The notes under the pieces are model-generated. The model was not told where the DNA came from, ran no database searches, and worked only from the letters and a program-made list of their open reading frames with translations. Shown in pieces: positions 13,966 to 46,404 of a stretch of 64,000 nucleotides of DNA (positions are counted from its first letter, which is position 1; the number at the start of each line of letters is the position of its first letter). This stretch comes from Gammaproteobacteria bacterium (lineage in GTDB: Bacteria > Pseudomonadota > Gammaproteobacteria > UBA9214), in assembly GCA_029860045.1 (NCBI GenBank), contig JAOUBY010000001.1, forward strand, positions 1,026 through 65,025. The letters are read 5' to 3'. A program made the position numbers and the translations under genes.

Positions 13966-15552
13966 TTAACACTTGTCATCCAGCCTGGTATGAATCGCCA
14001 TCATCGTAATGTCATCTGCCTGTGGTGCTTCATCCGCAAATCGATCAATATCTTCAATCACAGCTTTTAATATCGTCTCAGGGTTGGCCTTTAACTGCCC
14101 ATTTAAAAGTTCCACAAGGCGCGGCACGGAATATAATTGCCCTTCCATGTCTTTCGCCTCGGTCACGCCATCGGTGTATAAAAACAGGGTGTCACTGCTC
14201 GAAAGTTGATGATTCCCATTTTCGTACACGGCCTTATCCAGTACGCCCAGGGCGATACCCGGCTTGCATTCCAGGTTTGTAACACCATCTGCAGGCGATA
14301 AAACAAACGGCGAATCGTGCCCGGCTGAGCAGTACACCAGTTTGCCAGTCTGTAAATCCAGCACGCCGCAAAATACCGTCACGAACATGCAGGCATCATT
14401 GTTGACACACAGCTCCCTGTTAACCGATTGCAGCAAATCGCCGGGTTGGGAATAATTATTGGCCTTGGTCCTTAGCAAGGTGCAGGTCATTGACATGAAT
14501 AATGCCGCTGGCACGCCTTTACCGGCAACATCACCGATTACAAAAAACAGCTTTCTGCCAAACTCACCGGTTTTTGAATCTGCGCCGTGTTCGCCCAGGT
14601 AAAAACAATCGAAAAGATCTCCGCCCACTTCTTTGGCCGAGCGCACCATGGCATAAACAATTACGTTCTTGTGCAGTTTCTTCAAGGTGGCCTGATCCGG
14701 CAGCATTTTTAGCTGGATTTCCCTGGCTACAGCCAGTTCAGTGTTAATCCGCTCCTGGGCTGCGACATTGCTGGCCAGGGTTTTAACTGATTCTGCGAGG
14801 GCGTCCTCCATGAAAATAAATGATTTGGCCAGCTCGCCAATTTCATCGTGTGAGTGACTGGTCAGTCGCGCAATTTCGTGCTTGAAGCAGTCGATATTTT
14901 CAATATCCACGCTGGCCAGTTTTTCAGCGTGCCGGTTCAGAACAGTTAAGGGCTGCGAGATTTTATCGATCAGAAAGTACGTAATGATGATACTCAGGAT
15001 CATTAATAATAAAACGATGCCCTGCTGCTGCAGGATAATAGACAGAATCTGATCCTTGATCAGGCTTTTATCCATACCCACCAGCACGTAACCCGCCTCA
15101 CCGCCTAAAATGGGTGAAACAATGTTTTGATGACGCTCCATTTCGTGGATGTCATTGTCAAACGTACCGGCCCGGTGGTTTACCAGGTCAAGCTTCAAAT
15201 TGTGCGTGAGTTGCGCAATATCATTCGGGATACCCGGAACAAAAGTGTGTGCAACGATGTCACCCGCCCTGTCGGCTATTAACACATGAGAAACACCCTC
15301 AACTCCCAGGTATTCATCAATCGTGGATTGCAGTGCCGCCGGGTTATCTGCCATCAGGGCCGCAATGCTCGCTTCGGCCAGAATGCTGCCGATAGAATGG
15401 CCTTTGACGTCAAACTCCTGTGTCATGCCGGTGTAGATCGACCAGGCAGATAATATTGAGATGCTGGTCGAGATCAACCCGAACAGCACCACTACAACAA
15501 TGAGAGTTTTTTTAAAGAGGCGGGACACCGGGACTCCAGCCTGACCAATCAT
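13966..15552 (-). CDS. membrane HAMP-PP2C (SpoIIE/RsbU-type) serine phosphatase with periplasmic sensor domain
   Basis: 528 aa; two TM segments flanking a ~130-aa periplasmic region, a HAMP-like linker, then PP2C motifs (GGDLFDCF, VIGDVAGKG, DGVTE); convergent with the STAS gene. Confidence 0.8.
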   Translation of the reverse strand: MIGQAGVPVSRLFKKTLIVVVVLFGLISTSISILSAWSIYTGMTQEFDVKGHSIGSILAEASIAALMADNPAALQSTIDEYLGVEGVSHVLIADRAGDIVAHTFVPGIPNDIAQLTHNLKLDLVNHRAGTFDNDIHEMERHQNIVSPILGGEAGYVLVGMDKSLIKDQILSIILQQQGIVLLLMILSIIITYFLIDKISQPLTVLNRHAEKLASVDIENIDCFKHEIARLTSHSHDEIGELAKSFIFMEDALAESVKTLASNVAAQERINTELAVAREIQLKMLPDQATLKKLHKNVIVYAMVRSAKEVGGDLFDCFYLGEHGADSKTGEFGRKLFFVIGDVAGKGVPAALFMSMTCTLLRTKANNYSQPGDLLQSVNRELCVNNDACMFVTVFCGVLDLQTGKLVYCSAGHDSPFVLSPADGVTNLECKPGIALGVLDKAVYENGNHQLSSSDTLFLYTDGVTEAKDMEGQLYSVPRLVELLNGQLKANPETILKAVIEDIDRFADEAPQADDITMMAIHTRLDDKC

Positions 15553-16744
15553 CGATGCTCACATAATGCCCATCCTGTACGGTGTTGAAATAAACGCTTT
15601 GCAGGCCCTGGTTATTTGCCTCGCTAAAATGCACGCGTTCACCAATCCCGATATCATGGTCAACCAGGGTATTCATGGTGCTTTTAATGTTGGCCCGGTT
15701 TATATCGCCTCCCGTACGCCGTAATATTTCGACCATCAGTTTAGCGTTTAAATAGCCCTCAAAGCTGACAAACCCCAGCTCCTCAAGATCATTTTCCTGC
15801 ATTAACCGGCGATACTCGAGCGCGGCAGGGTAACTATCGTCGTGATAGTTGGGTACCACCTCGGAATTGATCAGGTTGGCGGTGTAGTCCCTGCCGCTTG
15901 ATGATGACTCGGCTACCAGCAACCCGAGCAAACTTTCACTATCGACAAACGAGATATTTGCGATAGGTACAGCCCAATCGGCATTTCTGCTATCCCGGAT
16001 AAATCCGGCCGCGGCGGCGTAGGCGCCTATGGAAATAACCACATCCGGCGTGGATTCCCGCAAAATCTCTACCTGTTGATTAAAACTCTCGTCATAGGGC
16101 GTTCCTCTACGGTAAGTTGCTTCTCCAACAATACTCAAACCATGCTCTTTTAATGCTCTGCGCACGCCATCCCAACCGCTTCTGCCATAGGCGTCTGCCT
16201 GATAAAAAACGGCAATCCTGTCTCTGCCAATGTTGACCAGGTGATCAACCAGGCCCCTGGTTTCCTGGCGGTATGAGGGCCGCAAATTATAGGCGTAAGC
16301 GCTGAATGGCGGCTGACGCTGGGGCTCAGCACCGGTAAAGGGGAAAAACAGCAAAAGATTTTTATTGTCGTAGATATTAAGCAGTGGTAAAACGCGCGTT
16401 ACGGTAGGTGTGCCGATGTAACCGATCAGGGCGGAAACTTTATCTTCCTCAATTAATTTTAAGGTATTTTTTATGGCGGGTTCAGGGTCGTAACCATCAT
16501 CGTATTCTTGCAGACGGATTGACCTGCCGTTGATGCCACCCTGGGCATTAATATGCTCAAAGTAGACGGACATTCCATTGTACAGCGCGCTACCCAGCCT
16601 GGCCGATGTTCCGCTGAATGCCCCGGACATTCCTAGGACAATGTCAGCTTTTTGTGCTGTGGGCTCATTTTGTTTAAGTGGCTTGTCGCTCAAATCATGT
16701 TGGGCAAAACCAACTAGCGGCAGGATCATAAACAAAAGCGCCAT
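15512..16744 (-). CDS. periplasmic substrate-binding protein, type-1 PBP (LivK/branched-chain amino acid-binding-like)
   Basis: Start taken at Met14 (16744), which has an AAGG RBS and a signal peptide MALLFMILPLVGFA; Peripla_BP_6-like pattern; 3' end overlaps the phosphatase start by 41 nt. Confidence 0.7.
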   Translation of the reverse strand: MALLFMILPLVGFAQHDLSDKPLKQNEPTAQKADIVLGMSGAFSGTSARLGSALYNGMSVYFEHINAQGGINGRSIRLQEYDDGYDPEPAIKNTLKLIEEDKVSALIGYIGTPTVTRVLPLLNIYDNKNLLLFFPFTGAEPQRQPPFSAYAYNLRPSYRQETRGLVDHLVNIGRDRIAVFYQADAYGRSGWDGVRRALKEHGLSIVGEATYRRGTPYDESFNQQVEILRESTPDVVISIGAYAAAAGFIRDSRNADWAVPIANISFVDSESLLGLLVAESSSSGRDYTANLINSEVVPNYHDDSYPAALEYRRLMQENDLEELGFVSFEGYLNAKLMVEILRRTGGDINRANIKSTMNTLVDHDIGIGERVHFSEANNQGLQSVYFNTVQDGHYVSIDDWSGWSPGVPPL

Positions 16745-16782
16745 TTTATACCTTGTTGAACGGGTTCTTGCCATGGGCCACA

Positions 16783-17043
16783 TTACTCCAGAAACCCGGG
16801 CATGCGTTTCCTCTCCATCGCGTTGAGTTCGTCAATAATGTATCGGGCTCCCATCAACCTTATTTGAACCGGAAATGATTCCATCACGACGACATTCTCA
16901 TGTATCCCGTCCTCTTCCGACTCCATGACTCGCTCCAAAACGGGATCCGGCGACTCCGCGCTACCCACAATGACAGAGGAAATCATGTCTTTCTTAAAAC
17001 CCGTATCACCGCTATCCGTCATCAAGCATCCTGCGGCAATCAA
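16783..17043 (-). CDS. hypothetical small acidic protein (possible first gene of the SBP-phosphatase operon)
   Basis: 86-aa ORF ending 38 nt upstream of the SBP start; lower-GC; no recognisable motif. Confidence 0.2.
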   Translation of the reverse strand: MIAAGCLMTDSGDTGFKKDMISSVIVGSAESPDPVLERVMESEEDGIHENVVVMESFPVQIRLMGARYIIDELNAMERKRMPGFLE

Positions 17044-28480: not shown

Positions 28481-30889
28481 TCAGGCGGCCTCGTGTATTG
28501 GCAGTTCGAAGGAGAATTCCGCGCCACCGCCGGCCAGCGTCCTGGCAAAGATGTTGCCGGCGTGGGACTCGACTATGGAACGACTGATCGATAGCCCGAT
28601 CCCCATGCCGTCCGGCTTGGTCGAATAAAATGCATCGAATATTTTCGGTAGTGCTTCCTTGGATACGCCTTGTCCGGTATCAGAAGCGATGAGCTGTACG
28701 GTCTCCCCGTTACTGCGCGTGGTAATCTTTAGCTGGCGGCTTCCTGTCTCGGTCATATCCATGGCGTCAATGCTGTTGCGGATGAAGTTCAGTATCACCT
28801 GTTCGAGCTGGATCATGTTGCCCAGTACGGGCGGCAGTTCCTTGTCCAGGTCGAGTTCGATACCGACATCATGCCTGCGCGCTTCCATCATGACCAGCGC
28901 GGTAATGTTGCTGGCCGCCTTGTTCAGGTCCACCAGAGTACGTTCAGCGCTTTCTTTTTGCACAAATTCACGGATATTGCGGATGATATTGGCCGCCAGT
29001 GTGGCGCCTTCAATAGCCCGCTCCATGCCCTCGACGATCTTGTCAGTATCACTCGTGCCATCGCGCAAAAGACGCAGGCAGCCGCTGCTGTAGTTGATAG
29101 CGCCAGTCAGCGGCTGGTTGAGTTCATGGGCGAGGCTGGCCGCCATCTCGCCGATCGTGCTCATGCGCGAGACGCGCGCCAGTTCCGACTGGTGCCGCTG
29201 CTGTGATTCAGAGGCTAGTTGTCGTTCCATTTCGTCACCGATCCACTGGGCCATGACCTTGAGCAACTCGAGGTCCCATTTGCTGAGGTGCTTTTCGCGA
29301 ATCCCTGTACCGGCGAACTCCAGTGTGCAATGGACGCGTCCTTCCACCAGCACTGCGGTGCCGAGGTAGCTCTGCAAGCCCTGTACCTCGCAGTCCGGGC
29401 AGGACACCCTGGCCGCGGAGAGGTCCGGTACATCGAGCGGTTCGCCATGCAATGCGATCAGTTTACTTGCGCCCTTTGCATTCAGGGGGCCCGGGTTTTC
29501 AGGTATCAGGCCTGCCTCGCCGGAGGTCTTGCAGTGGCAAACACCCTGCTCGTTACGCTCGGCACTGGACAGTACCGCAACGGGAAGATCGAAATACGCG
29601 CGACCCGTCTCCAGCAGACGGGACATCCGCTCGTCGTGTGAGAGTTCCGGGGCACTGGTAATGCGCACCAGTTCGCGTAGCGCCACCCGGCTTTTCTCCA
29701 GCCCCTCGTTGGTGGTCTTCAGGTCTTCGGTACGCGTCGCGACCTGTTCTTCCAGCGTGTCGCGGTAGCGAGCCAGTTTCGCCTGTGATTTTTCGCGTTC
29801 CTTGATTTCCCGGCGCAGGTTACGCTCGGTATCCTTGAGCCTGCGGTTGGTGTTGGATATATAGCCGTTCAGCAGCACCAGGAAGCCCAGCAGCAGCCCA
29901 ATCCCGACAAACCACCAGGCGTAGCGCTTGAGCATCCCGAGAAAGGAAGCCTGGCGCAGTACTTCGTAGGGGCCAATCTGCAGTGCCTGCATCAGATCAT
30001 GCACAGGGGAGTAGTCCAGCGGTACCGTCCATCCGGCCATGCGCGCCGCCTGTGTGGCGGGGTGGTTGGCCGGCATCGATAGCAGTGCCTGGGCCACGCG
30101 GGTGGCGAGTTCCCTGGGGGCATTCTTTGTCATTGCGAATGGCCACTCGGGGTATAAGCGAGTACTCAGCGGGAAGGGCGTGTTGTCCAGGCTCTGCGGA
30201 TTGAGGATGCAAAACTCGCCCTCGGCCACCTTGCCGCTTTCAATCATCCGCACCAGTGTTTCGGCCCGCACTGTCGCCGCATCGATCTCGCCCTTGTGTA
30301 CGGCCATGATGATCTTGTCCTGGGGAAAACCGGCAAAGTGCAGTTCGCGGATGTCGCTGAAGGGATCAATGCCATGCTCATTCAGTTCCCGCCAGGCCAT
30401 CTGGAAACCGCCAAAGGCTTTTTGGCTGACGGCCATAAAGGATTTGCCTTTCAGGTCAGCAAGCGTAGTGATGTCGGGTCGGTCGGCGCGCGCGATGATC
30501 ACGGCGCCATAGCGAACGCGGGTTTGCTCGCCCTCGCGGGTCTGCATGGTGGCGATACGTGAAACACCGTGGCTTGTTTCCAGGCTGACATAGTTGCCCG
30601 GATTGGTGAGTGTAAAGTGGATGTATCCTTCCTGAATGGCCCGGGGCATTTCCTCGAGGTTGACGGGCACAATCTCGAAGTGATGGGTGGTTATTCTTTC
30701 AGACAGATAGTCTGCGGTCGGTGACCAGCGCTCCACCGCCTCTTGCTTGCCACGGTGGGCCAGCACACCGATGCGTACGACCGTGACCTGATCAGTGGGC
30801 GAGGCCGGGGTCGCAGGCGTGCTCACCAGCAGCATGGGCAGCAGCAGTGGCACCAGCAAGTGCCAGCGTGGTTTGATTGACCGGAACAT
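28481..30889 (-). CDS. sensor histidine kinase with periplasmic PhnD/SsuA-like binding domain (TtrS-like)
   Basis: Signal peptide, ~300-aa periplasmic PBP-like domain, TM, coiled coil, GAF-like region, HisKA (HELNQPL) and HATPase (GMGIGLSISRSIV). Confidence 0.8.
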   Translation of the reverse strand: MFRSIKPRWHLLVPLLLPMLLVSTPATPASPTDQVTVVRIGVLAHRGKQEAVERWSPTADYLSERITTHHFEIVPVNLEEMPRAIQEGYIHFTLTNPGNYVSLETSHGVSRIATMQTREGEQTRVRYGAVIIARADRPDITTLADLKGKSFMAVSQKAFGGFQMAWRELNEHGIDPFSDIRELHFAGFPQDKIIMAVHKGEIDAATVRAETLVRMIESGKVAEGEFCILNPQSLDNTPFPLSTRLYPEWPFAMTKNAPRELATRVAQALLSMPANHPATQAARMAGWTVPLDYSPVHDLMQALQIGPYEVLRQASFLGMLKRYAWWFVGIGLLLGFLVLLNGYISNTNRRLKDTERNLRREIKEREKSQAKLARYRDTLEEQVATRTEDLKTTNEGLEKSRVALRELVRITSAPELSHDERMSRLLETGRAYFDLPVAVLSSAERNEQGVCHCKTSGEAGLIPENPGPLNAKGASKLIALHGEPLDVPDLSAARVSCPDCEVQGLQSYLGTAVLVEGRVHCTLEFAGTGIREKHLSKWDLELLKVMAQWIGDEMERQLASESQQRHQSELARVSRMSTIGEMAASLAHELNQPLTGAINYSSGCLRLLRDGTSDTDKIVEGMERAIEGATLAANIIRNIREFVQKESAERTLVDLNKAASNITALVMMEARRHDVGIELDLDKELPPVLGNMIQLEQVILNFIRNSIDAMDMTETGSRQLKITTRSNGETVQLIASDTGQGVSKEALPKIFDAFYSTKPDGMGIGLSISRSIVESHAGNIFARTLAGGGAEFSFELPIHEAA

Positions 30890-31336: not shown

Positions 31337-31426
31337 GGAGAGGTGTCCGAGTGGTTGAAGGAGCACGCCTGGAAAGTGTGTATACGTGCAAACGTATCGA
31401 GGGTTCGAATCCCTCTCTCTCCGCCA
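31337..31426 (+). tRNA. tRNA-Ser (anticodon GGA)
   Basis: GGAGAGG...anticodon stem CACGC/GTGTG with loop CTGGAAA, long variable arm, GAGGG-TTCGAAT-CCCTC, TCTCTCC-G-CCA. Confidence 0.85.
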
Positions 31427-31796
31427 AGCAGTCTGGTCTCTGTCCCGCGTCTCTGCGGGGCAGGGCCAATCCAACAAGAATTCAGCTGCTTACGCGGTAT
31501 TAGTGGCTACATTAAGACCCTCAAACCGAACTGCTTCGCGTGATATTTCCAAGAAATCCCGAATCGTCTCAAACGCGAATTTTGCGAGTTCGGTTTCGTG
31601 TTTTTTCTTGGCAATTAAAGCATTAGGTAATGTGTATTTGCTTGAATTGAAAAACACGAAAATAGACGATTTGAAATAGGCATTCCGGCAGCTGCGAACT
31701 CGAGGTACGGTTTGGGTGTTGAAGCAAAATGCTGGCCTGACAGAATGGTGTTAGATGTGTTCGATTTACGTATGACCGTTATGGCCATGTCCGGAG
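31408..31796 (+). repeat. direct repeat copy 1: tRNA-Ser(GGA) 3' end plus ~370 bp downstream flank
   Basis: Matches 33934-34170 and 36643-36850; copy 2 lacks the 31586-31708 block (CGGTTT microhomology at the deletion edges). Confidence 0.8.
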
Positions 31797-31892: not shown

Positions 31893-32171
31893 TCAGAATT
31901 TATCAATCATGTCACGCAAACGCTTCTGTAACGATTCGGGGGTATGCTTTGTAGCCGCGTTTTTTATGCGGGCCGATAATGCACTTTCAACCTGTGAACG
32001 CGTGAAACAACTATGGCAGTGCTCCAGATGATACTCTAGCTTGCCGATTGAATCGGCATCATCGACCTCGCCATCGAGATAGGCGTAGAGCTTGTCGATC
32101 GCTTCTGTGCAGTTAATATCTTCTATATTTTCACTGTCTTTATCAGTCGTCATTTGATTTTCCTTCCGCAC
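31893..32171 (-). CDS. zinc-binding (ZAS, zf-HC2) anti-sigma factor
   Basis: 92 aa; HLEHCHSC = HxxxCxxC; overlaps upstream ECF sigma gene by 29 nt. Confidence 0.75.
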   Translation of the reverse strand: MRKENQMTTDKDSENIEDINCTEAIDKLYAYLDGEVDDADSIGKLEYHLEHCHSCFTRSQVESALSARIKNAATKHTPESLQKRLRDMIDKF

Positions 32172-32766
32172 ATTTACACTCGATCAAACCTTCGTCACTG
32201 GCCTGTTGCCAGAGCGCTTTTTGCAACAGCGTACGTCCGCGCTTCATGCGGGAATGAACTGTGCCGGGCGGCACACCAAGCACCACTGCCGTTTCATCGT
32301 AAGATAAACCCTCGACGTTAACCAGCAATATGGTCGTCCTGAATGCATCAGGCAGGCTGTCGATGGCCATCATGATGTCCTCGCCGAGCAGGCTGTTTAC
32401 AAACGCCTTTTCCGGATTGGCCCACCAGTACATAAACTCGTTTGACTGCTGGATTACCAGGTCGCCGATTTCATCCTTGCCTTCCGCAACTGACAACTCA
32501 TCGTAGCTGGACTCACAGGGGCGCGCCGACTTTTTCCGATAGTCACTGATAAAGCAGTTGTGCAGGATACGAAACAGCCAAGGCCGAAACCGGCTTCGAT
32601 CCTCCAGCTTCCCAACCGCCGCCCATGCCTTTGCCACGGACTCAGCTACAAGGTCTTCAGCTTCTGCATTGTTGCGCGTCAGGCGAAAAGCTACGCTGAA
32701 CAATGAACCCATGTTTTCCTCAATACCCTGGCTGAACCAGGCTTTGAGAATTTCCCTATCCGACAT
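32143..32766 (-). CDS. ECF (sigma-70 family, group IV) RNA polymerase sigma factor
   Basis: 207 aa; region 2 (FRPWLFRILHNCFISDYRK) and region 4 (LSYDETAVVLGVPPGTVHSRMKRGR) signatures. Confidence 0.8.
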   Translation of the reverse strand: MSDREILKAWFSQGIEENMGSLFSVAFRLTRNNAEAEDLVAESVAKAWAAVGKLEDRSRFRPWLFRILHNCFISDYRKKSARPCESSYDELSVAEGKDEIGDLVIQQSNEFMYWWANPEKAFVNSLLGEDIMMAIDSLPDAFRTTILLVNVEGLSYDETAVVLGVPPGTVHSRMKRGRTLLQKALWQQASDEGLIECKCAEGKSNDD

Positions 32767-32945
32767 TAATCCTTATTCCTCGTCATTTTCGGCACTCCGG
32801 CCCTGTTTCTGTGCCTCATTATATTCCCTCCGGTCCTGTGTCTCCTTCTTGTGCTTCGGTCGAGCGCATGGATCATGAGGCATACCAACTTATGTGACAG
32901 GCCCCGAAACTGGTAACAATTTCAGGGCCTGCATGAATATGTTCA

Positions 32946-33314
32946 TCAGAAACTCAACGTGGTCGCACCCTGTCTGACCTTCTCCAGCATCGCCACAGAA
33001 CCAGCAAACTGCACACCGTCAATAAAGTCTTCCTGGTCGTAACCGCGAACTTTCGCACAGGGCGGACAGCACATGATGGTACCGCCATTGTTAATAATGC
33101 CATCAATCATTTCCCTGGCCGGCGGGTCTAGTGGGTTCAATCGGGCTGCATCGGCGGCCCCTTTACGAACCCAGTCCACACCAGAGCTGACCAGGAACAT
33201 CGTTACTTCAAAGTCTGAAGCAATTCCGCCATTCGCTACGCTCCAGGCGACTGATGACCTTTCGTTATCGAGACCATTTGTTACCACAACAACCAGTTTT
33301 TTCTTGTCCGACAT
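32946..33314 (-). CDS. DsrE/DsrF/YchN-like family protein
   Basis: 122 aa; strand order and C-terminus resemble YchN (KLVVVVTNG..., ...GVQFAGSVAMLEKVRQGATTLSF); Cys pair CCPPC. Confidence 0.55.
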   Translation of the reverse strand: MSDKKKLVVVVTNGLDNERSSVAWSVANGGIASDFEVTMFLVSSGVDWVRKGAADAARLNPLDPPAREMIDGIINNGGTIMCCPPCAKVRGYDQEDFIDGVQFAGSVAMLEKVRQGATTLSF

Positions 33315-33720: not shown

Positions 33721-33754
33721 CAAGTTTCAGGAGGTTGCAATTCGTAGCAGTACC

Positions 33755-33817
33755 GAGGTTTCGAATCCATATCTCTCCGCCAATAATCAAAAAGGCTCCA
33801 AATGGAGCCTTTTTGAT
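33755..33817 (+). repeat. degenerate tRNA-Ser 3'-end remnant (T-loop and acceptor: GGTTTCGAATCCATATCTCTCCGCCA) followed by terminator-like hairpin
   Basis: 21/24 identity to the tRNA-Ser(GGA) 3' end; followed by AAAAAGGCTCCaaatGGAGCCTTTTT, like the terminator after tRNA-Ser(CGA). Confidence 0.5.
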
Positions 33818-33933
33818 TATCAGTAAAGGGGTTCGAACCTTCAATGATCAATTGGCGGTTCGACAAAATCGCCGGGAGCGATTCTGAGTGAGCGATGCGA
33901 ACCTGAAGGGCAGGGCACAGGGAAGTGCCCTGC

Positions 33934-34170
33934 AATCCCTCTCTCTCCGCCAAGCAGTCTGGTCTCTGTCCCGCCTCTCTGCGGGGCAGGGCCAATCCAA
34001 TAAGAATTCAGCTGCAAGACCCTCAAACCGAACTGCTTCACGTGACATTTCCAAGAAATCCCGAATCGTCTCAAACGCGAATCTTGCGAATTCGGTTTGG
34101 GTGCTTTAGAAAATGTTGCCCTGACAGAATAGTGTCAGATGTGATTGACTCGCGAATGACCGTTTACGGT
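33934..34170 (+). repeat. direct repeat copy 2: last 19 nt of tRNA-Ser(GGA) plus flank
   Basis: AATCCCTCTCTCTCCGCCAAGCAGTCTGGTCTCTGTCCCGC... collinear with copy 1, with internal deletion. Confidence 0.8.
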
Positions 34171-35117: not shown

Positions 35118-35404
35118 AGTTCGTCCACCGTATTGCTAGTGTATGTTTACTATTATTTTGCAGGTACACGTATATCCTATATATAAAAACACCATCAATA
35201 TATTGGACTAAAGTGCAGGCAGTAGAAGGATTCATCCTCTGCCGCTTCATTCCTCGATTAAGAAATGCATTTGCGACATCTGGTGCTCAATAACTCATGG
35301 AATCTTTAACAGAAGAATGGAAAAGAGTTGGGCTATAATTGTGTGTATTCAAACATCACTCAATGAGTAGAAATACGGTGAGGGCCTCCCCAAAACTGGA
35401 GCAC

Positions 35405-36172
35405 TCATAAGTCGAGATTTCCGGCTTCAAGGTGCCGATCCCTGAATTCGATCGGCGTTAAATCTTTCAGCGATGAGTGTGGGCGAAAGGTATTGTATTC
35501 CTCCCGCCACGACTCGATCTTCTCACGCGCATCATCCAGCGACAAGAACCAGTGACTGTTCAGACATTCATCCCGAAAGCTGCCGTTAAATGATTCGATA
35601 AACGGGTTATCCGTTGGTTTCCCCGGCCTGGAGAAGTCCAATGTCACACCGTTCTCGTAGGCCCACTTATCCAGAACCTTCGAAATAAACTCGCTGCCGT
35701 TGTCCACCTGAATGCGATCAGGGCATCGGTCATGGCATCGCTGCATGTGTGCCATGATACCCACAACATGCTCTCCTCGGATGCTGCGATCAACATGGAT
35801 AAGCATGCATTCTCGACTAAAATTATCGACCACAGTTAACGCCCGAATGCGCGAGCCGTCAAACAGATTGTCGGCTACAAAATCCATGCTCCAGCACTGA
35901 TCGATTGTAGACAGCTCGGGGCGCTCCATCCGGTGTGCTGCCGCAACATGGCGCCTTGGCCGCTTGCTCCTTAGATTTAACCCTTCCTCTTTGTATATGC
36001 GGTGAACTTTCTTATGGTTGACCTGCCAGCCTTCTCGCCGAAGCAACACGTGGATGCGCTGATAACCATAACGCATCCGCGTGGCTGCAATCTCCTTGAT
36101 CCGTTGACGCAGTACCGTATCGGGGCTGCGCCGTGACTTGTAGTGATAGACTGACTCCGATATCGCTACCAC
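35405..36172 (-). CDS. IS3-family transposase OrfB (DDE integrase core), expressed by -1 frameshift from OrfA
   Basis: rve-domain pattern (DNGSEF..., HSSLKDLTPIEF). Confidence 0.85.
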   Translation of the reverse strand: MVAISESVYHYKSRRSPDTVLRQRIKEIAATRMRYGYQRIHVLLRREGWQVNHKKVHRIYKEEGLNLRSKRPRRHVAAAHRMERPELSTIDQCWSMDFVADNLFDGSRIRALTVVDNFSRECMLIHVDRSIRGEHVVGIMAHMQRCHDRCPDRIQVDNGSEFISKVLDKWAYENGVTLDFSRPGKPTDNPFIESFNGSFRDECLNSHWFLSLDDAREKIESWREEYNTFRPHSSLKDLTPIEFRDRHLEAGNLDL

Positions 36173-36246
36173 CTTGCAGGCCCGACGTATTGATGCTCGA
36201 TACGCATCGCGCAGGAAATCAACGAGCTCCCGACGCTTGGCTGGCT

Positions 36247-36513
36247 TCAGAGCTTTTTTTGCAGCACATCCTGAAGCATTTGTTTATCCAGGCTTAAATC
36301 CGCCACCATACGCTTCAATCGGTAGTTCTCGTCTTCCAACTGTTTTAGGCGCCTGACCTCTGAGACCCCAAGCCCACCGTACTTCTTCTTCCAGTTGTAA
36401 AACGTGGCCTCTGATATCCCCATCTTGCGACAGACCTCGTTAACCCGTGCACCTGTCTCAGCTTGGCGCAATGCAAAAGCGATCTGTTGATCTGTGAACT
36501 TTGTTCTCTTCAT
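36247..36513 (-). CDS. IS3-family transposase OrfA (HTH)
   Basis: MKRTKFTDQQIAFALRQAETGARVNEVCRKMGISEATFYNWKKKYGG... leucine-zipper tail; slippery AAAAAAG near its 3' end. Confidence 0.85.
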   Translation of the reverse strand: MKRTKFTDQQIAFALRQAETGARVNEVCRKMGISEATFYNWKKKYGGLGVSEVRRLKQLEDENYRLKRMVADLSLDKQMLQDVLQKKL

Positions 36514-36642
36514 GGCAAATGACTCCTCCTGCTCGTCAATTTTGCCAGAATCCTCTAGTTTTGGATGCTCCAGTTTTCAGGGGGGAGGCCCTCAAGCGCA
36601 GGGAAACTCTAAAAGTATGTGGCACTAAAGTGGGGAGGTTTA

Positions 36643-36850
36643 CCAAGCAGTCTGGTCTCTGTCCCGAGTCTCTGCGGGACAGAGCCAATCCAACAGGAAT
36701 TCAGCAGCTTAGGCTTAAGAAGAGGGTAGATACAGGCCCTGAAACCGAACTGCTTCGCGCGGAATTTCCGCAAATTCCCGAATCGTCTCAAATGCCGAAT
36801 TTGCCAGTTCGGTTTTGTGTTTCTTTTTGGCGATTAATGCCTTAGTTCCT
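36643..36850 (+). repeat. direct repeat copy 3 of the tRNA-Ser(GGA) downstream flank (retains only CCA of the tRNA)
   Basis: CCAAGCAGTCTGGTCTCTGTCCCGAGTCTCTGCGGGAC... collinear with copy 1 to ~31629; compensatory change keeps the GTCCCG/CGGGAC hairpin. Confidence 0.75.
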
Positions 36851-36941: not shown

Positions 36942-36969
36942 GGAACCTGGACTCTATTGGCTGGTCTAT
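36942..36969 (+). promoter_or_regulatory. candidate ECF-sigma-type promoter GGAACCT-N15-GTCTAT upstream of bufA
   Basis: GGAAC (36942-46), 17-nt spacer, GTC (36964-66); about 68 nt upstream of the bufA ATG. Confidence 0.45.
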
Positions 36970-37036
36970 ATCCGTGCTGACAGTGGCTCGGGCGGTTTTG
37001 CCCGGCACGCTGTTCCTAGTTAGGAGGGAATCTCTT

Positions 37037-37327
37037 ATGAAGAGTAAAAGCACTGTTGTAAATGCAGCTATTGCCGGTGTTCTGGCCATGGGCAGTGGTC
37101 TTGCTACTGTGGCTCATGCGGTTCCGGATCAACCGGCGGAATGGGAAAAGTGTGCAGGTATTGCCAGGGCCGGCATGAATGATTGTGGCGCCCTGGATGG
37201 CAAGCATTCCTGTGCGGGACAGGCCGCTGTTGATAATGACGCAAACGAATGGGTCTACGTTCCCAAAGGTACCTGCACAAAGATCACCGGTGGCGTAGTG
37301 GCTGCGGTGAAACCAGCCAAGAAGTAG
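37037..37327 (+). CDS. bufA: bufferin-type RiPP precursor, BufA1/DUF2282 family
   Basis: 96 aa; AGGAGGG RBS 8 nt upstream; Sec signal MKSKSTVVNAAIAGVLAMGSGLATVAHA; core with 4 Cys in EKCAG..NDCG..HSCAGQ..GTC pattern. Confidence 0.75.
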   Translation: MKSKSTVVNAAIAGVLAMGSGLATVAHAVPDQPAEWEKCAGIARAGMNDCGALDGKHSCAGQAAVDNDANEWVYVPKGTCTKITGGVVAAVKPAKK

Positions 37328-37330
37328 AGT

Positions 37331-38209
37331 TTGTCTACTCAACCTTTGAACACCCTCCGCCCGGGTAACCGGGCGGAGGGTCGCATCACAGGTACTGGCA
37401 TCGGGCTGCGCAGCCCACATATCCGCGAAGTGCTGGATACGCAGCCTGACGTCCCGTGGTTTGAGATACTTACGGACAACCATACCGCGGCTGGTGGGCG
37501 TACTGCAGCGGAACTCATGGCAATCCGTGAATGCTATCCGATAACCTTTCATTGTGTCGGCCTCTCACTTGGCAGCAGCGATCCTTTGGATCAGGGGTAC
37601 CTGGACACGTTGAAGACCATGCATGCACGCTATGAGCCGGCATGGATTTCCGATCATCTGTGCTTCAGCAGCCTCGATGGCACCCATTACCATGATTTAT
37701 TACCATTACCTTTCACCGAAGAGGCGGTAGAGCATGTGGCCAGGCGCATTGGTTTCGTACAGGAATTCCTGGGCCAGCGCATTCTTGTCGAAAATGTCTC
37801 CAGCTATATGGCCTATACCCACTCAGTCCTTTCGGAAGCCGAATTTCTGGCGGCCGTATCCGAGACTGCAGATTGCGACCTGCTACTGGACATCAATAAT
37901 ATCTATGTCAACGAATTCAATCATGGCCTGTCCGGCATCGACTATCTGGATGCCATCCCGTTGCGGCGGGTACGTGAAATCCACCTGGGAGGTTTTGAAG
38001 ACAAGGGAGCCTTTTTGCTGGACGCCCACAATCATGCTGTCAGCAAACCCGTATGGGCCTTGTACCGGGAATGTATAAAGCGTATTCCGGGTACCCCCAC
38101 CTTGATCGAATGGGACAACGATATCCCCGGATTTTCTATATTACAACAGGAAGCTGAAACCGCGCGGCGCATCGCTGCGGAGCAGTCAGCGGCGCAAAAC
38201 GGAGCCTGA
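37331..38209 (+). CDS. bufB: MNIO family (DUF692) multinuclear non-heme iron oxidative enzyme
   Basis: 292 aa; GIGLRSPH...VPWFEILTDNH N-terminal signature of DUF692/MbnB-like TIM barrel; 3-nt gap from bufA. Confidence 0.75.
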   Translation: MSTQPLNTLRPGNRAEGRITGTGIGLRSPHIREVLDTQPDVPWFEILTDNHTAAGGRTAAELMAIRECYPITFHCVGLSLGSSDPLDQGYLDTLKTMHARYEPAWISDHLCFSSLDGTHYHDLLPLPFTEEAVEHVARRIGFVQEFLGQRILVENVSSYMAYTHSVLSEAEFLAAVSETADCDLLLDINNIYVNEFNHGLSGIDYLDAIPLRRVREIHLGGFEDKGAFLLDAHNHAVSKPVWALYRECIKRIPGTPTLIEWDNDIPGFSILQQEAETARRIAAEQSAAQNGA

Positions 38210-38213
38210 CAGA

Positions 38214-38996
38214 ATGCAACTGGCCGACTTCGAGCGCCGTATTATGCAGGGTATCACCCCAGTAGCTGCTACCCAGGACCGGCAAGCCACGGAACAGATG
38301 CTGAAGCCTGGTGGGGAGTTGACGGCCAAAGAGTGTCTGGCTGTTTACCGTAACAACATCACGAGTACCCGGGTGCGTGCGCTGCAAGCCATTTACCCCG
38401 TGTGCGAAACTATTCTGGGCAGTGATTGTTTTCGTGTCCTGGCGAGGGAGTTTGCCTGGCAGGCGGCCGATGCCTGTGCGGACCTCAATGTCTATGGCGG
38501 GCAGCTTGCAGAATACCTGGGCGCACAGCAGCGGAGTAATTTTTCACTGCTACCCTACCTGAAAGAACTGGCCCGGCTGGAATGGAATTGGCACACTGCC
38601 TACTATGCCGCGGATACTGCGCCTTTCGCTTACCAATCATTTTCTAGCGCTGCGGCTCACCCTGAACGATTGCGCTTTACCCTTGCTGACGGTCTTGCTT
38701 TGCTGGAAACAAAATATCCAGTGAGGGAAATCTGGCAACGGCATCGTGCGCGGGAAAATCCGGATAGCATCCCTGCGCTTGAAGCCTGCGAATACCTGTG
38801 CATCCACCGTCCTGATTATGGACCCCAGGTTACATCTCTGGGTAAAACAACATATGTCTTGCTTACACGTATCCAAAAGGGCAGTACGCTGGAACAACTC
38901 GGGGATACAGCAGAGCTAAGCGAAAATCTGGCTGAACTACTACCGGTTCTGATCCAGCGGGGCTGGGTGTCAGGATTCCAGTTGTTGTCGGTATAG
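38214..38996 (+). CDS. bufC: DUF2063 partner protein of MNIO enzyme
   Basis: 260 aa; N-terminal AVYRNNITSTRVRALQAIYPV signature of DUF2063. Confidence 0.7.
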   Translation: MQLADFERRIMQGITPVAATQDRQATEQMLKPGGELTAKECLAVYRNNITSTRVRALQAIYPVCETILGSDCFRVLAREFAWQAADACADLNVYGGQLAEYLGAQQRSNFSLLPYLKELARLEWNWHTAYYAADTAPFAYQSFSSAAAHPERLRFTLADGLALLETKYPVREIWQRHRARENPDSIPALEACEYLCIHRPDYGPQVTSLGKTTYVLLTRIQKGSTLEQLGDTAELSENLAELLPVLIQRGWVSGFQLLSV

Positions 38997-46153: not shown

Positions 46154-46404
46154 GGTGCTCCCCCTTGTTGATTGTGCACCCTGAATAACAGCGATTGTGA
46201 GGTAAATCAAGCCGCTTAAAAAACTGTGCGACACCCTCTATAATGGGCCCGGTTATGGTGGCTTGTGCCGGTCCCCCCGCGACGATAAGCTGTGAACCCC
46301 GTCAGGCCCGGAAGGGAGCAGCGGCAGCAGTGGACTCGGGCGCCGGGGTGTGGCTGGTGCAGGTCGCCTCCATTATTTTGCAAAATACCAAAACAAGGCC
46401 ATAA

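Follow-up and report, generated by a model that had tools for sequence, protein, structure and literature searches.

Bufferins are a very large family of periplasmic copper-chelating RiPPs (peptides synthesised by the ribosome and modified after translation) that was described in 2024. In the Buf1 system of Caulobacter, conversion of the two central cysteines of the precursor into 5-thiooxazoles requires the enzyme BufB and its partner BufC, which suffice for it, and the first and last cysteines form a disulfide, for a total mass shift of -10 Da; the precursor is exported via Sec, and the product binds copper and improves growth in copper stress (PMC11626156; PMC12452194). DoxX, encoded by the fourth gene of the Caulobacter operon, is dispensable for both modification and function (PMC11626156), and the 5-thiooxazole assignment has been confirmed in related products, now grouped as 'captophorins' (PMC13097082). 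Transcription of the Caulobacter operon is controlled by sigmaF through an experimentally defined promoter, GTAACC-N16-CGAA (PMC3511200). In Cupriavidus metallidurans and Legionella pneumophila, the gig (gold-induced genes) operons belong to the same operon family and are induced by gold or copper (PMC11626156), although their likeness to the operon described below is taken from the literature and not from a sequence comparison. Here we analyse a three-gene operon, bufABC, in a stretch of 64,000 nucleotides (the window) from contig JAOUBY010000001.1 of a gammaproteobacterial metagenome-assembled genome (MAG; GCA_029860045.1). It very probably represents a complete Buf1-type bufferin (captophorin) cassette, made up of a promoter of the extracytoplasmic function (ECF) type followed by bufA, bufB and bufC, which was acquired horizontally and lies near a tRNA-Ser gene.

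The buf1ABCD cluster in Caulobacter vibrioides (CCNA_03363-03366; CC3254-CC3257; PMC11626156, PMC3511200) and the window operon have several features in common. Each encodes a four-cysteine precursor of the DUF2282 type that bears a Sec signal peptide; genes for a multinuclear non-haem iron oxidative enzyme (MNIO) and its DUF2063 partner occur in identical order; and both promoters are of the ECF type, the -35 box being G-N-AACC and the spacer 16 nt long. Unlike the Caulobacter operon, the window operon has neither DoxX (bufD) nor adjacent sigF/nrsF, its -10 element reads GTCT and not CGAA, its host is a gammaproteobacterial MAG, and the cassette sits beside an IS3 element in a region of low G+C content at third codon positions (GC3) that adjoins a tRNA.

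Results

An intact operon with the hallmarks of Buf1

An initial annotation, made from the window's sequence, had proposed a bufferin-type operon in which genes for a precursor, a DUF692 enzyme and a DUF2063 protein follow one another with gaps of 3 and 4 nt. All three open reading frames (ORFs) are present on the forward strand, head to tail, with 3 nt between bufA and bufB (37328-37330) and 4 nt between bufB and bufC (38210-38213; Table 1). The check that the annotation had suggested, a search with the profile hidden Markov models (HMMs) of the three families, placed each product above its curated cut-off, and none of the assignments failed. BufA scored 86.3 bits against PF10048 (DUF2282; cut-off 22.4), covering profile positions 1-51 of 53; BufB scored 340 bits against PF05114 (MbnB_TglH_ChrH; cut-off 25) and 345 bits against the NCBIfam equivalog NF050167 (MNIO_BufB, 'MNIO family bufferin maturase'; cut-off 310); and BufC scored 57.2 bits against PF09836 (DUF2063/HvfC_N; cut-off 27.2). 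The order bufA-bufB-bufC is retained in about 150 related loci, the identical locus is present on two metagenome contigs, and a protein identical to BufC is found at NCBI as a Gammaproteobacteria MAG protein (P0121).

The 96-residue precursor had been described as carrying a Sec signal peptide and a four-cysteine pattern, and the PF10048 score, the invariance of the cysteines and the conservation of the cleavage region all bear this out. By inspection the N-terminus is of the Sec type, with K2 and K4, hydrophobic residues 7-26 and an AHA/VP cut after residue 28. In an alignment of 43 homologues, Cys39, Cys50, Cys59 and Cys80 occupy invariant columns, and A28, V29 and P30 are invariant or nearly so. 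The core fits the clade consensus EKCaGIaKaGmNDCG..gkH.CaGQ...EWvYvP.GTC.KItGG. A protein search returned 1453 BufA homologues at E<=1e-5, the closest being 81-89% identical, and a sequence search of the PDB with BufA gave no match.

An alignment of 79 BufB sequences has 57 columns with conservation of at least 93%, and the window's BufB agrees with the consensus in every one, the conserved His, Asp and Glu residues included; its closest solved structure is 3bww, a DUF692 protein. BufC found no match in the PDB by sequence, so that a fold search was needed. Its AlphaFold model, built from nine homologues, has a predicted local distance difference test (pLDDT) score of 88, and its top three fold matches in the PDB are two entries of TglI, the partner of the MNIO TglH, and NGO1945 (3DEE), the DUF2063 prototype, each with a probability of 1.00. 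Thus family cut-offs, conserved residues and the fold of the partner protein agree on a Buf1/DUF2282-type bufABC operon, as had been proposed. Since the ORFs are intact, the conserved residues are retained and the BufC fold matches that of known partner proteins, the three genes look functional. We regard the locus as a genuine bufferin operon of the Buf1 type that is apparently functional, and as an ordinary addition to a family with thousands of known clusters.

Could the operon belong to another MNIO-dependent RiPP class, such as the oxazolins (HvfABC) with their EGKCG repeats, the methanobactins or the pearlins? BufB does match the HvfB, ApyH, MbnB and ChrH models, and BufC weakly matches HvfC. 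However, all of the other-class equivalog scores of BufB are below cut-off, and far below it for HvfB (249 vs 360) and MbnB (57 vs 325), as is that of BufC for HvfC (41 vs 142); moreover, the precursor is a DUF2282 protein with four spaced cysteines and no EGKCG repeats. This assignment is therefore barely conceivable, and the family scores rule it out. The window operon does resemble the HvfABC/oxazolin, fontiphorin and gonophorin (PMC13097082) and MbnABC systems in that an MNIO and a partner protein act on cysteines of a ribosomal peptide and the products are copper-related. It differs from them in that their precursors are EGKCG-repeat peptides or the short MbnA, not DUF2282 proteins, and in that the window enzyme fails their equivalog cut-offs.

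Table 1. Coordinates of the bufferin cassette and of features in its surroundings (window positions; position 1 is the first letter of the window)
Feature	Position	Strand	Remarks
-35-like box GGAACCT	36942-36948	+	Invariant 7-mer in five loci; 95 nt 5' of the bufA ATG
-10-like box GTCTATA	36964-36970	+	15 nt after the -35-like box
Shine-Dalgarno sequence AGGAGGG	37022-37028	+	8 nt 5' of the bufA ATG; GGAG kept in relatives
bufA, bufferin precursor	37037-37327	+	ATG start; 96 aa; DUF2282/BufA1
BufA signal peptide, residues 1-28	37037-37120	+	By inspection; core is residues 29-96
bufB, MNIO (formerly DUF692)	37331-38209	+	TTG start; 292 aa
bufC, DUF2063 partner protein	38214-38996	+	ATG start; 260 aa; C-terminal domain resembling a RiPP recognition element (RRE)
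tRNA-Ser(GGA), left anchor of the low-GC region	31337-31426	+	ARAGORN, Rfam
tRNA-Ser repeat, copy 1	31408-31780	+	Begins at the tRNA 3' end; segment of about 200 nt at 31408-31626
zf-HC2/RsrA-like anti-sigma factor	31893-32171	-	Pfam/NCBIfam
ECF sigma factor, candidate regulator of bufABC	32143-32766	-	Pfam/NCBIfam; only one in the 64-kb window
DsrE-like gene	32946-33314	-	Pfam/NCBIfam
tRNA-Ser repeat, copy 2	33934-34164	+	95-98% identical; includes 19 nt of the tRNA 3' end; segment of about 200 nt at 33934-34113
IS3-family element	35379-36594	-	orfA 36247-36513, orfB 35405-36172; HTH_Tnp_1, rve, inverted repeats, TG...CA ends
tRNA-Ser repeat, copy 3	36627-36845	+	About 80% identical to copy 1; starts at the tRNA end and ends in a terminator-like hairpin

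Missing genes: DoxX is rarely present, a linked sigma factor usually is

From species-representative genomes and Joint Genome Institute (JGI) metagenomes we collected 160 loci that code for relatives of BufB, and classified the region 3' of bufC with HMMs built for the purpose and checked against Pfam in the 112 loci that had at least 700 nt after bufC. An ECF sigma factor gene lies directly 3' of bufC in 68 of these 112 and a related one upstream in a further 8, giving 76 with a linked sigma factor, while 32 of the 112 hold bufABC alone (or bufBC, where no bufA ORF was called). DoxX occurs in only 8 of the 112, four of them among the eight with an upstream sigma factor, and is thus missing from 104. 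The closest relatives in this set (L003, L083, L004, L015, L020 and L008) are all of the three-gene type; in L003, a ferritin-like gene in convergent orientation and a transposase of the IS200 type come after bufABC.

In the window, bufC is followed not by a DoxX gene but by 253 nt of non-coding sequence and then by a convergent gene for a resistance-nodulation-division (RND) pump. This spacer has no homology to the relatives and its predicted fold is unremarkable (z = -0.26), and when every stop-to-stop frame of 40 aa or more was scanned with hmmsearch, no remnant of a sigma factor or of DoxX appeared 3' of bufC. An HMM of the buf-linked sigma factors likewise found nothing adjacent to the operon, its sole match in the window being at 32146-32772 (73.6 bits). 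The lack of DoxX that the initial annotation had singled out is therefore real, yet it does not distinguish this locus; it is ordinary, because 104 of 112 related loci lack DoxX as well and the protein is dispensable in Caulobacter. What sets the window apart from most relatives is the missing dedicated ECF sigma/anti-sigma module.

Gammaproteobacterial loci that do carry the module (for example L005, L013, L168 and L170) share with the window operon the gene order, BufA and BufB proteins that are about 70-76% and 50-60% identical, respectively, and an ECF-type promoter about 80-120 nt 5' of bufA. They differ from it in having a dedicated ECF sigma factor and a putative single-pass anti-sigma factor of about 200 aa right after bufC, and in a promoter of the form TGCAATCAAA-N13-TTCGTCT; the window has neither. 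In most sigma-linked loci the gene after the sigma factor encodes this protein, which is about 200 aa long and spans the membrane once (L013:12164-12766, L005:12193-12834, L168:5814-6428), and the L013 and L005 copies match no Pfam or NCBIfam model. It is likely to represent an undescribed anti-sigma family for bufferin regulation in Gammaproteobacteria, because it is not the six-helix NrsF/DUF1109 anti-sigma factor of Caulobacter.

Still closer relatives came solely from a BufA protein search, and on short contigs. This search yielded the sub-clade to which the window belongs (metagenome contigs L163, L164, L166/L179 and L174-L178), whose proteins are 84-89% (BufA), 78-88% (BufB) and 63-65% (BufC) identical to those of the window. 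No sigma factor or DoxX gene was seen on these contigs, which stop 108-173 nt after bufC where bufC is present. Like the window, they carry three-gene cassettes behind a GGAACCT...GTC[TC]A[TC]A promoter, but the flanking genes differ each time (HemY-like, small ORFs and others), and none of the loci adjoins a tRNA-Ser repeat, an IS3 element or an RND pump. The four Logan contigs L175-L178, which come from several sequencing runs, are 2742-2750 nt long, start 616 nt 5' of bufA and end 165-173 nt 3' of bufC; it seems that assembly stopped at shared flanking points each time, perhaps because of repeats or variable contexts.

A conserved ECF-shaped promoter

Upstream regions were aligned for the window and four members of its sub-clade (L163, L164, L166 and L174); they are 38-58% identical pairwise. 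GGAACCT and GTC are the sole invariant runs of at least three columns among 202 aligned ones, and a run of at least seven invariant columns arose in only 3 of 100,000 column shuffles. In all five loci, GTC[TC]A[TC]A is kept 15-16 nt after GGAACCT, 63-103 nt 5' of the ATG. Within the 64-kb window, GGAAC-N15-18-GTCT has a single match, at 36942, where 1.48 would be expected by chance; the motif is thus significant because it is kept in relatives, and not from the window count alone. No sigma-70-like promoter was found 5' of bufA. On this conservation, we take the ECF-shaped bufA promoter to be real and to travel with the cassette. The ECF-like promoter of the initial annotation accordingly stands as a conserved element, whereas the control by an ECF sigma factor that was suggested alongside it is still a presumption.

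The promoter is of a different type from that of the sigma-linked relatives, which have a very conserved TGCAATCAAA-N13-TTCGTCT about 80-120 nt 5' of bufA. Scored with a position weight matrix built from 26 instances of that motif, the window promoter reaches -5.5, which is background level, and it was therefore rejected as a member of this type. The sigma-linked motif is seen in about 35 of 75 related loci (at -101 in L013 and -81 in L005) and tracks the presence of a linked sigma factor. Among the closest three-gene relatives in the BufB set, L003 and L083 hold GCAAC-N18-GTCTAT and have no adjacent sigma gene; a global alignment of the L003 and window promoter regions over their whole length was uninformative.

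A terminator-like hairpin followed by a T run lies 5' of bufA (36794-36813) and shuts bufABC off from upstream transcription. The 5' untranslated region of the window, with a stable hairpin at 36979-37014, folds with z = -2.1. RNAalifold supported no shared hairpin among four relatives, just a GUUCCU/AGGAG pairing without covariation. The GTTCCT involved (in the region 37010-37027), 5-6 nt 5' of the Shine-Dalgarno sequence, is kept in four of the five sub-clade loci and can pair with AGGAG; this pairing may occlude the ribosome-binding site of bufA.

Which sigma factor reads the promoter?

As no sigma gene adjoins the operon, the promoter would be read by a sigma factor encoded elsewhere, and two sources can be considered. 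One is a chromosomal ECF sigma factor encoded outside the window, either of the RpoE/AlgU envelope-stress type or an unlinked one of the bufferin type, which has almost an even chance of being the regulator. The -35 hexamer GGAACC is a single mismatch from the sigmaF box GTAACC of Caulobacter, with a 16-nt spacer in both, and L003 and L083 retain their GCAAC-N18-GTCTAT although no sigma gene adjoins. Escherichia coli sigmaE promoters (rpoH P3, rpoE P2, degP) have the form GGAACTT-N16-TCTGA or TCTAA, and the window layout, read as GGAACCT-N16-TCTAT, resembles them; we regard this as a lead and not as a test. Against a chromosomal regulator, the -10 element is unlike the consensus of both sigmaF and sigmaE, the promoter stays at background on the matrix of the sigma-linked relatives, and the window holds no rpoE-like gene or known sigmaE-regulon promoter for comparison. 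If a chromosomal sigma factor does read the promoter, an acquired cassette would have plugged into a stress regulon of its host.

The other source is the sole ECF sigma factor of the 64-kb window, encoded some kilobases upstream within the low-GC3 region that it shares with bufABC. It belongs to a different clade from the buf-linked sigma factors, against whose HMM it scores 73.6 bits where members score 170-218; it is SigH/SigR-like and is accompanied by an RsrA-like zf-HC2 anti-sigma factor. If this sigma factor read the bufA promoter, bufABC would be induced by thiol-reactive or oxidative stress, with the sigma factor held by an RsrA-like zinc/thiol anti-sigma factor and no dedicated bufferin sigma factor involved. 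In favour of this reading, a relaxed motif, GG[AG]ACC-N14-19-GTC[TC][AT], matches the window just twice: at the bufA promoter and as GGGACCT-N17-GTCTT (33422-33394, reverse strand), which lies 5' of the DsrE-like/sigma/anti-sigma operon in the correct orientation; SigR/SigH-type promoters have the form GGAA[TC]-N17-19-GTT. However, two sites are what chance predicts (1.84), and the sigma operon has a spacer of 17 nt compared with 15-16 nt in the buf sub-clade. In addition, the island sigma factor and bufABC lie in different repeat-bounded modules, and no homologue of this sigma factor, of its anti-sigma factor or of the DsrE-like gene was found near other buf loci among those fetched. Regulation by the island sigma factor therefore seems rather unlikely.

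A low-GC3 region with signs of integration

The cassette lies at the right-hand end of a region with unusual composition. Both GC and GC3 fall between 31.4 and 39.2 kb, and every gene between 31.9 and 39.0 kb shows a GC3 of 0.50-0.62, compared with 0.71-0.78 for the flanking genes (histidine kinase, RND pump, symporter, dnaX). The region is anchored on the left by tRNA-Ser(GGA) and punctuated by three copies of a repeat that starts at its 3' end, which bound successive modules: the DsrE-like/sigma/anti-sigma genes, then a gene for a GspH-like pilin together with the insertion sequence (IS) of the IS3 family, and finally, after the third copy, bufABC. The 'integration hotspot' of the initial annotation is thus recognisable as an integration-prone setting, with a tRNA-Ser gene, three repeats, an IS3 element and low GC3. 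No integrase domain was detected in the seven ORFs scanned between 31.4 and 39.2 kb, just the IS3 transposase, and the island is therefore degenerate.

Homology between the window and its sub-clade starts near the promoter and ends at the bufC stop codon, in non-syntenic contexts. Given a GC3 of 0.50-0.59 where core genes have 0.71-0.78, the tRNA-Ser with its three repeats and the IS3 element, and homology that ends at the cassette edges, it is well supported that the promoter and bufABC were acquired horizontally as a unit of about 2.1 kb. Because bufABC lies past the final copy of the repeat, an older insertion beside the original tRNA flank is another possibility, in which case it would not be part of a tRNA-integrating element. 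The sequences on either side of the IS3 element, ACGG and AGCG, show no recognisable target-site duplication, so an adjacent rearrangement or deletion is possible.

The repeats, of 200-370 nt, each contain two hairpins, one rich in G+C (GTCTCTGTCCCG.GTCTCTGCGGG.CAG) and one that resembles a terminator. They are much longer than the usual att site and could be the scar of serial integration or a tRNA-trailer element that was duplicated. At 33750-33820, another stretch that looks like a tRNA 3' end (GTACCGAGGTTTCGAATCCATATCTCTCCGCCA) precedes a perfect 18-bp palindrome; probably a further tRNA-Ser gene and its terminator left this remnant.

A link to metal efflux through the neighbouring RND pump was considered and rejected: the pump belongs to the multidrug (HAE1) class and is no CusA/CzcA pump, and therefore implies no functional link with bufABC. 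Elsewhere in the window, a second low-GC stretch (13966-16783; GC 0.47-0.50, GC3 0.53-0.57) with two large reverse-strand ORFs is probably another acquired segment. A bacterial small signal recognition particle RNA (46266-46362; Rfam, 68 bits) lies just 5' of dnaX, and a 94-nt tRNA-Gly called by ARAGORN within the histidine-kinase ORF (29108-29201) has no Rfam support and is probably a false positive.

Discussion

By analogy with Caulobacter Buf1, the locus would work as follows. Transcription would begin at the cassette-borne ECF-type promoter GGAACCT-N15-GTCTATA, under a sigma factor whose gene is not adjacent to the operon. In the cytoplasm, BufC would bind the 96-aa BufA precursor, presumably with its RRE-like domain, and the iron-dependent oxidase BufB would turn the central Cys50 and Cys59 into 5-thiooxazoles. 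The Sec system would then export the peptide, the signal peptide would be removed after Ala28, and a disulfide between Cys39 and Cys80 would form in the periplasm, where the folded 68-residue product (residues 29-96) would chelate copper and buffer metal stress. The initial annotation had expected the cysteines to become thiooxazoles at -4 Da each. This would hold for the two central cysteines but not for the outer two, which form the disulfide in Buf1; a total of -10 Da would be expected for this BufA, because it would carry two thiooxazoles and one disulfide, not four thiooxazoles.

Several points weigh against reading the locus as a working Buf1-type cassette. The chemistry, export route, copper binding and inducing signal proposed for it are carried over by homology, and the tie to Caulobacter Buf1 itself would rest on family models and not on a direct comparison of the proteins. 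In the genome and JGI metagenome collections, no BufB is closer than 67% identity. The structure model of BufA is moderate (pLDDT 66) and was not used further. The dedicated sigma/anti-sigma pair of most relatives is absent here. Finally, in the related lineage L165/L180 frameshifts divide both bufB and bufC, each into two ORFs, and such cassettes can therefore decay. The split genes of L165 and L180 (JGI metagenomes 3300048494 and 3300048057) reflect either pseudogenisation or indel errors of assembly.

These last two points raise the question of whether the window operon could be a silent or decaying remnant that was separated from its dedicated sigma/anti-sigma pair on moving and has no useful expression. 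The sigma gene that directly follows bufC in 68 of 112 relatives is indeed absent, an IS3 element without a clear target duplication adjoins, and the related lineage has frameshifted genes. However, the three ORFs are intact and tightly spaced behind a strong Shine-Dalgarno sequence, every conserved BufB residue is retained, and the three-gene architecture is common (32 of 112 loci). In addition, the promoter boxes are kept across five lineages, and therefore selection is implied. Decay is for these reasons quite improbable, and we retain the reading of the locus as an intact, apparently functional bufferin operon.

How the cassette came to be without its own regulators can be proposed in outline. 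The sub-clade may have shed the ECF sigma/anti-sigma pair, come to move as a 2.1-kb unit of promoter and bufABC, and switched its promoter from TGCAATCAAA-N13-TTCGTCT to GGAACCT-N15/16-GTCTATA; this is a tentative reconstruction, with a likelihood somewhat short of even. If it is true, copper buffering would have come under another ECF sigma factor, be it a host envelope-stress factor or the island SigR/RsrA-like pair.

The locus adds one intact example to the bufferin family and leaves the picture of bufferin mechanism unchanged. Since the three-gene form is common among gammaproteobacterial relatives, neither DoxX nor a linked sigma factor is a required feature. As the promoter type tracks the presence or absence of a linked sigma factor, the two promoter forms provide a motif pair for studying how bufferin expression is rewired after horizontal transfer. 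The edges of the cassette at the promoter and the bufC stop codon, together with its low GC3 and its tRNA and IS setting, show that metal-buffering capacity can move as a 2-kb unit.

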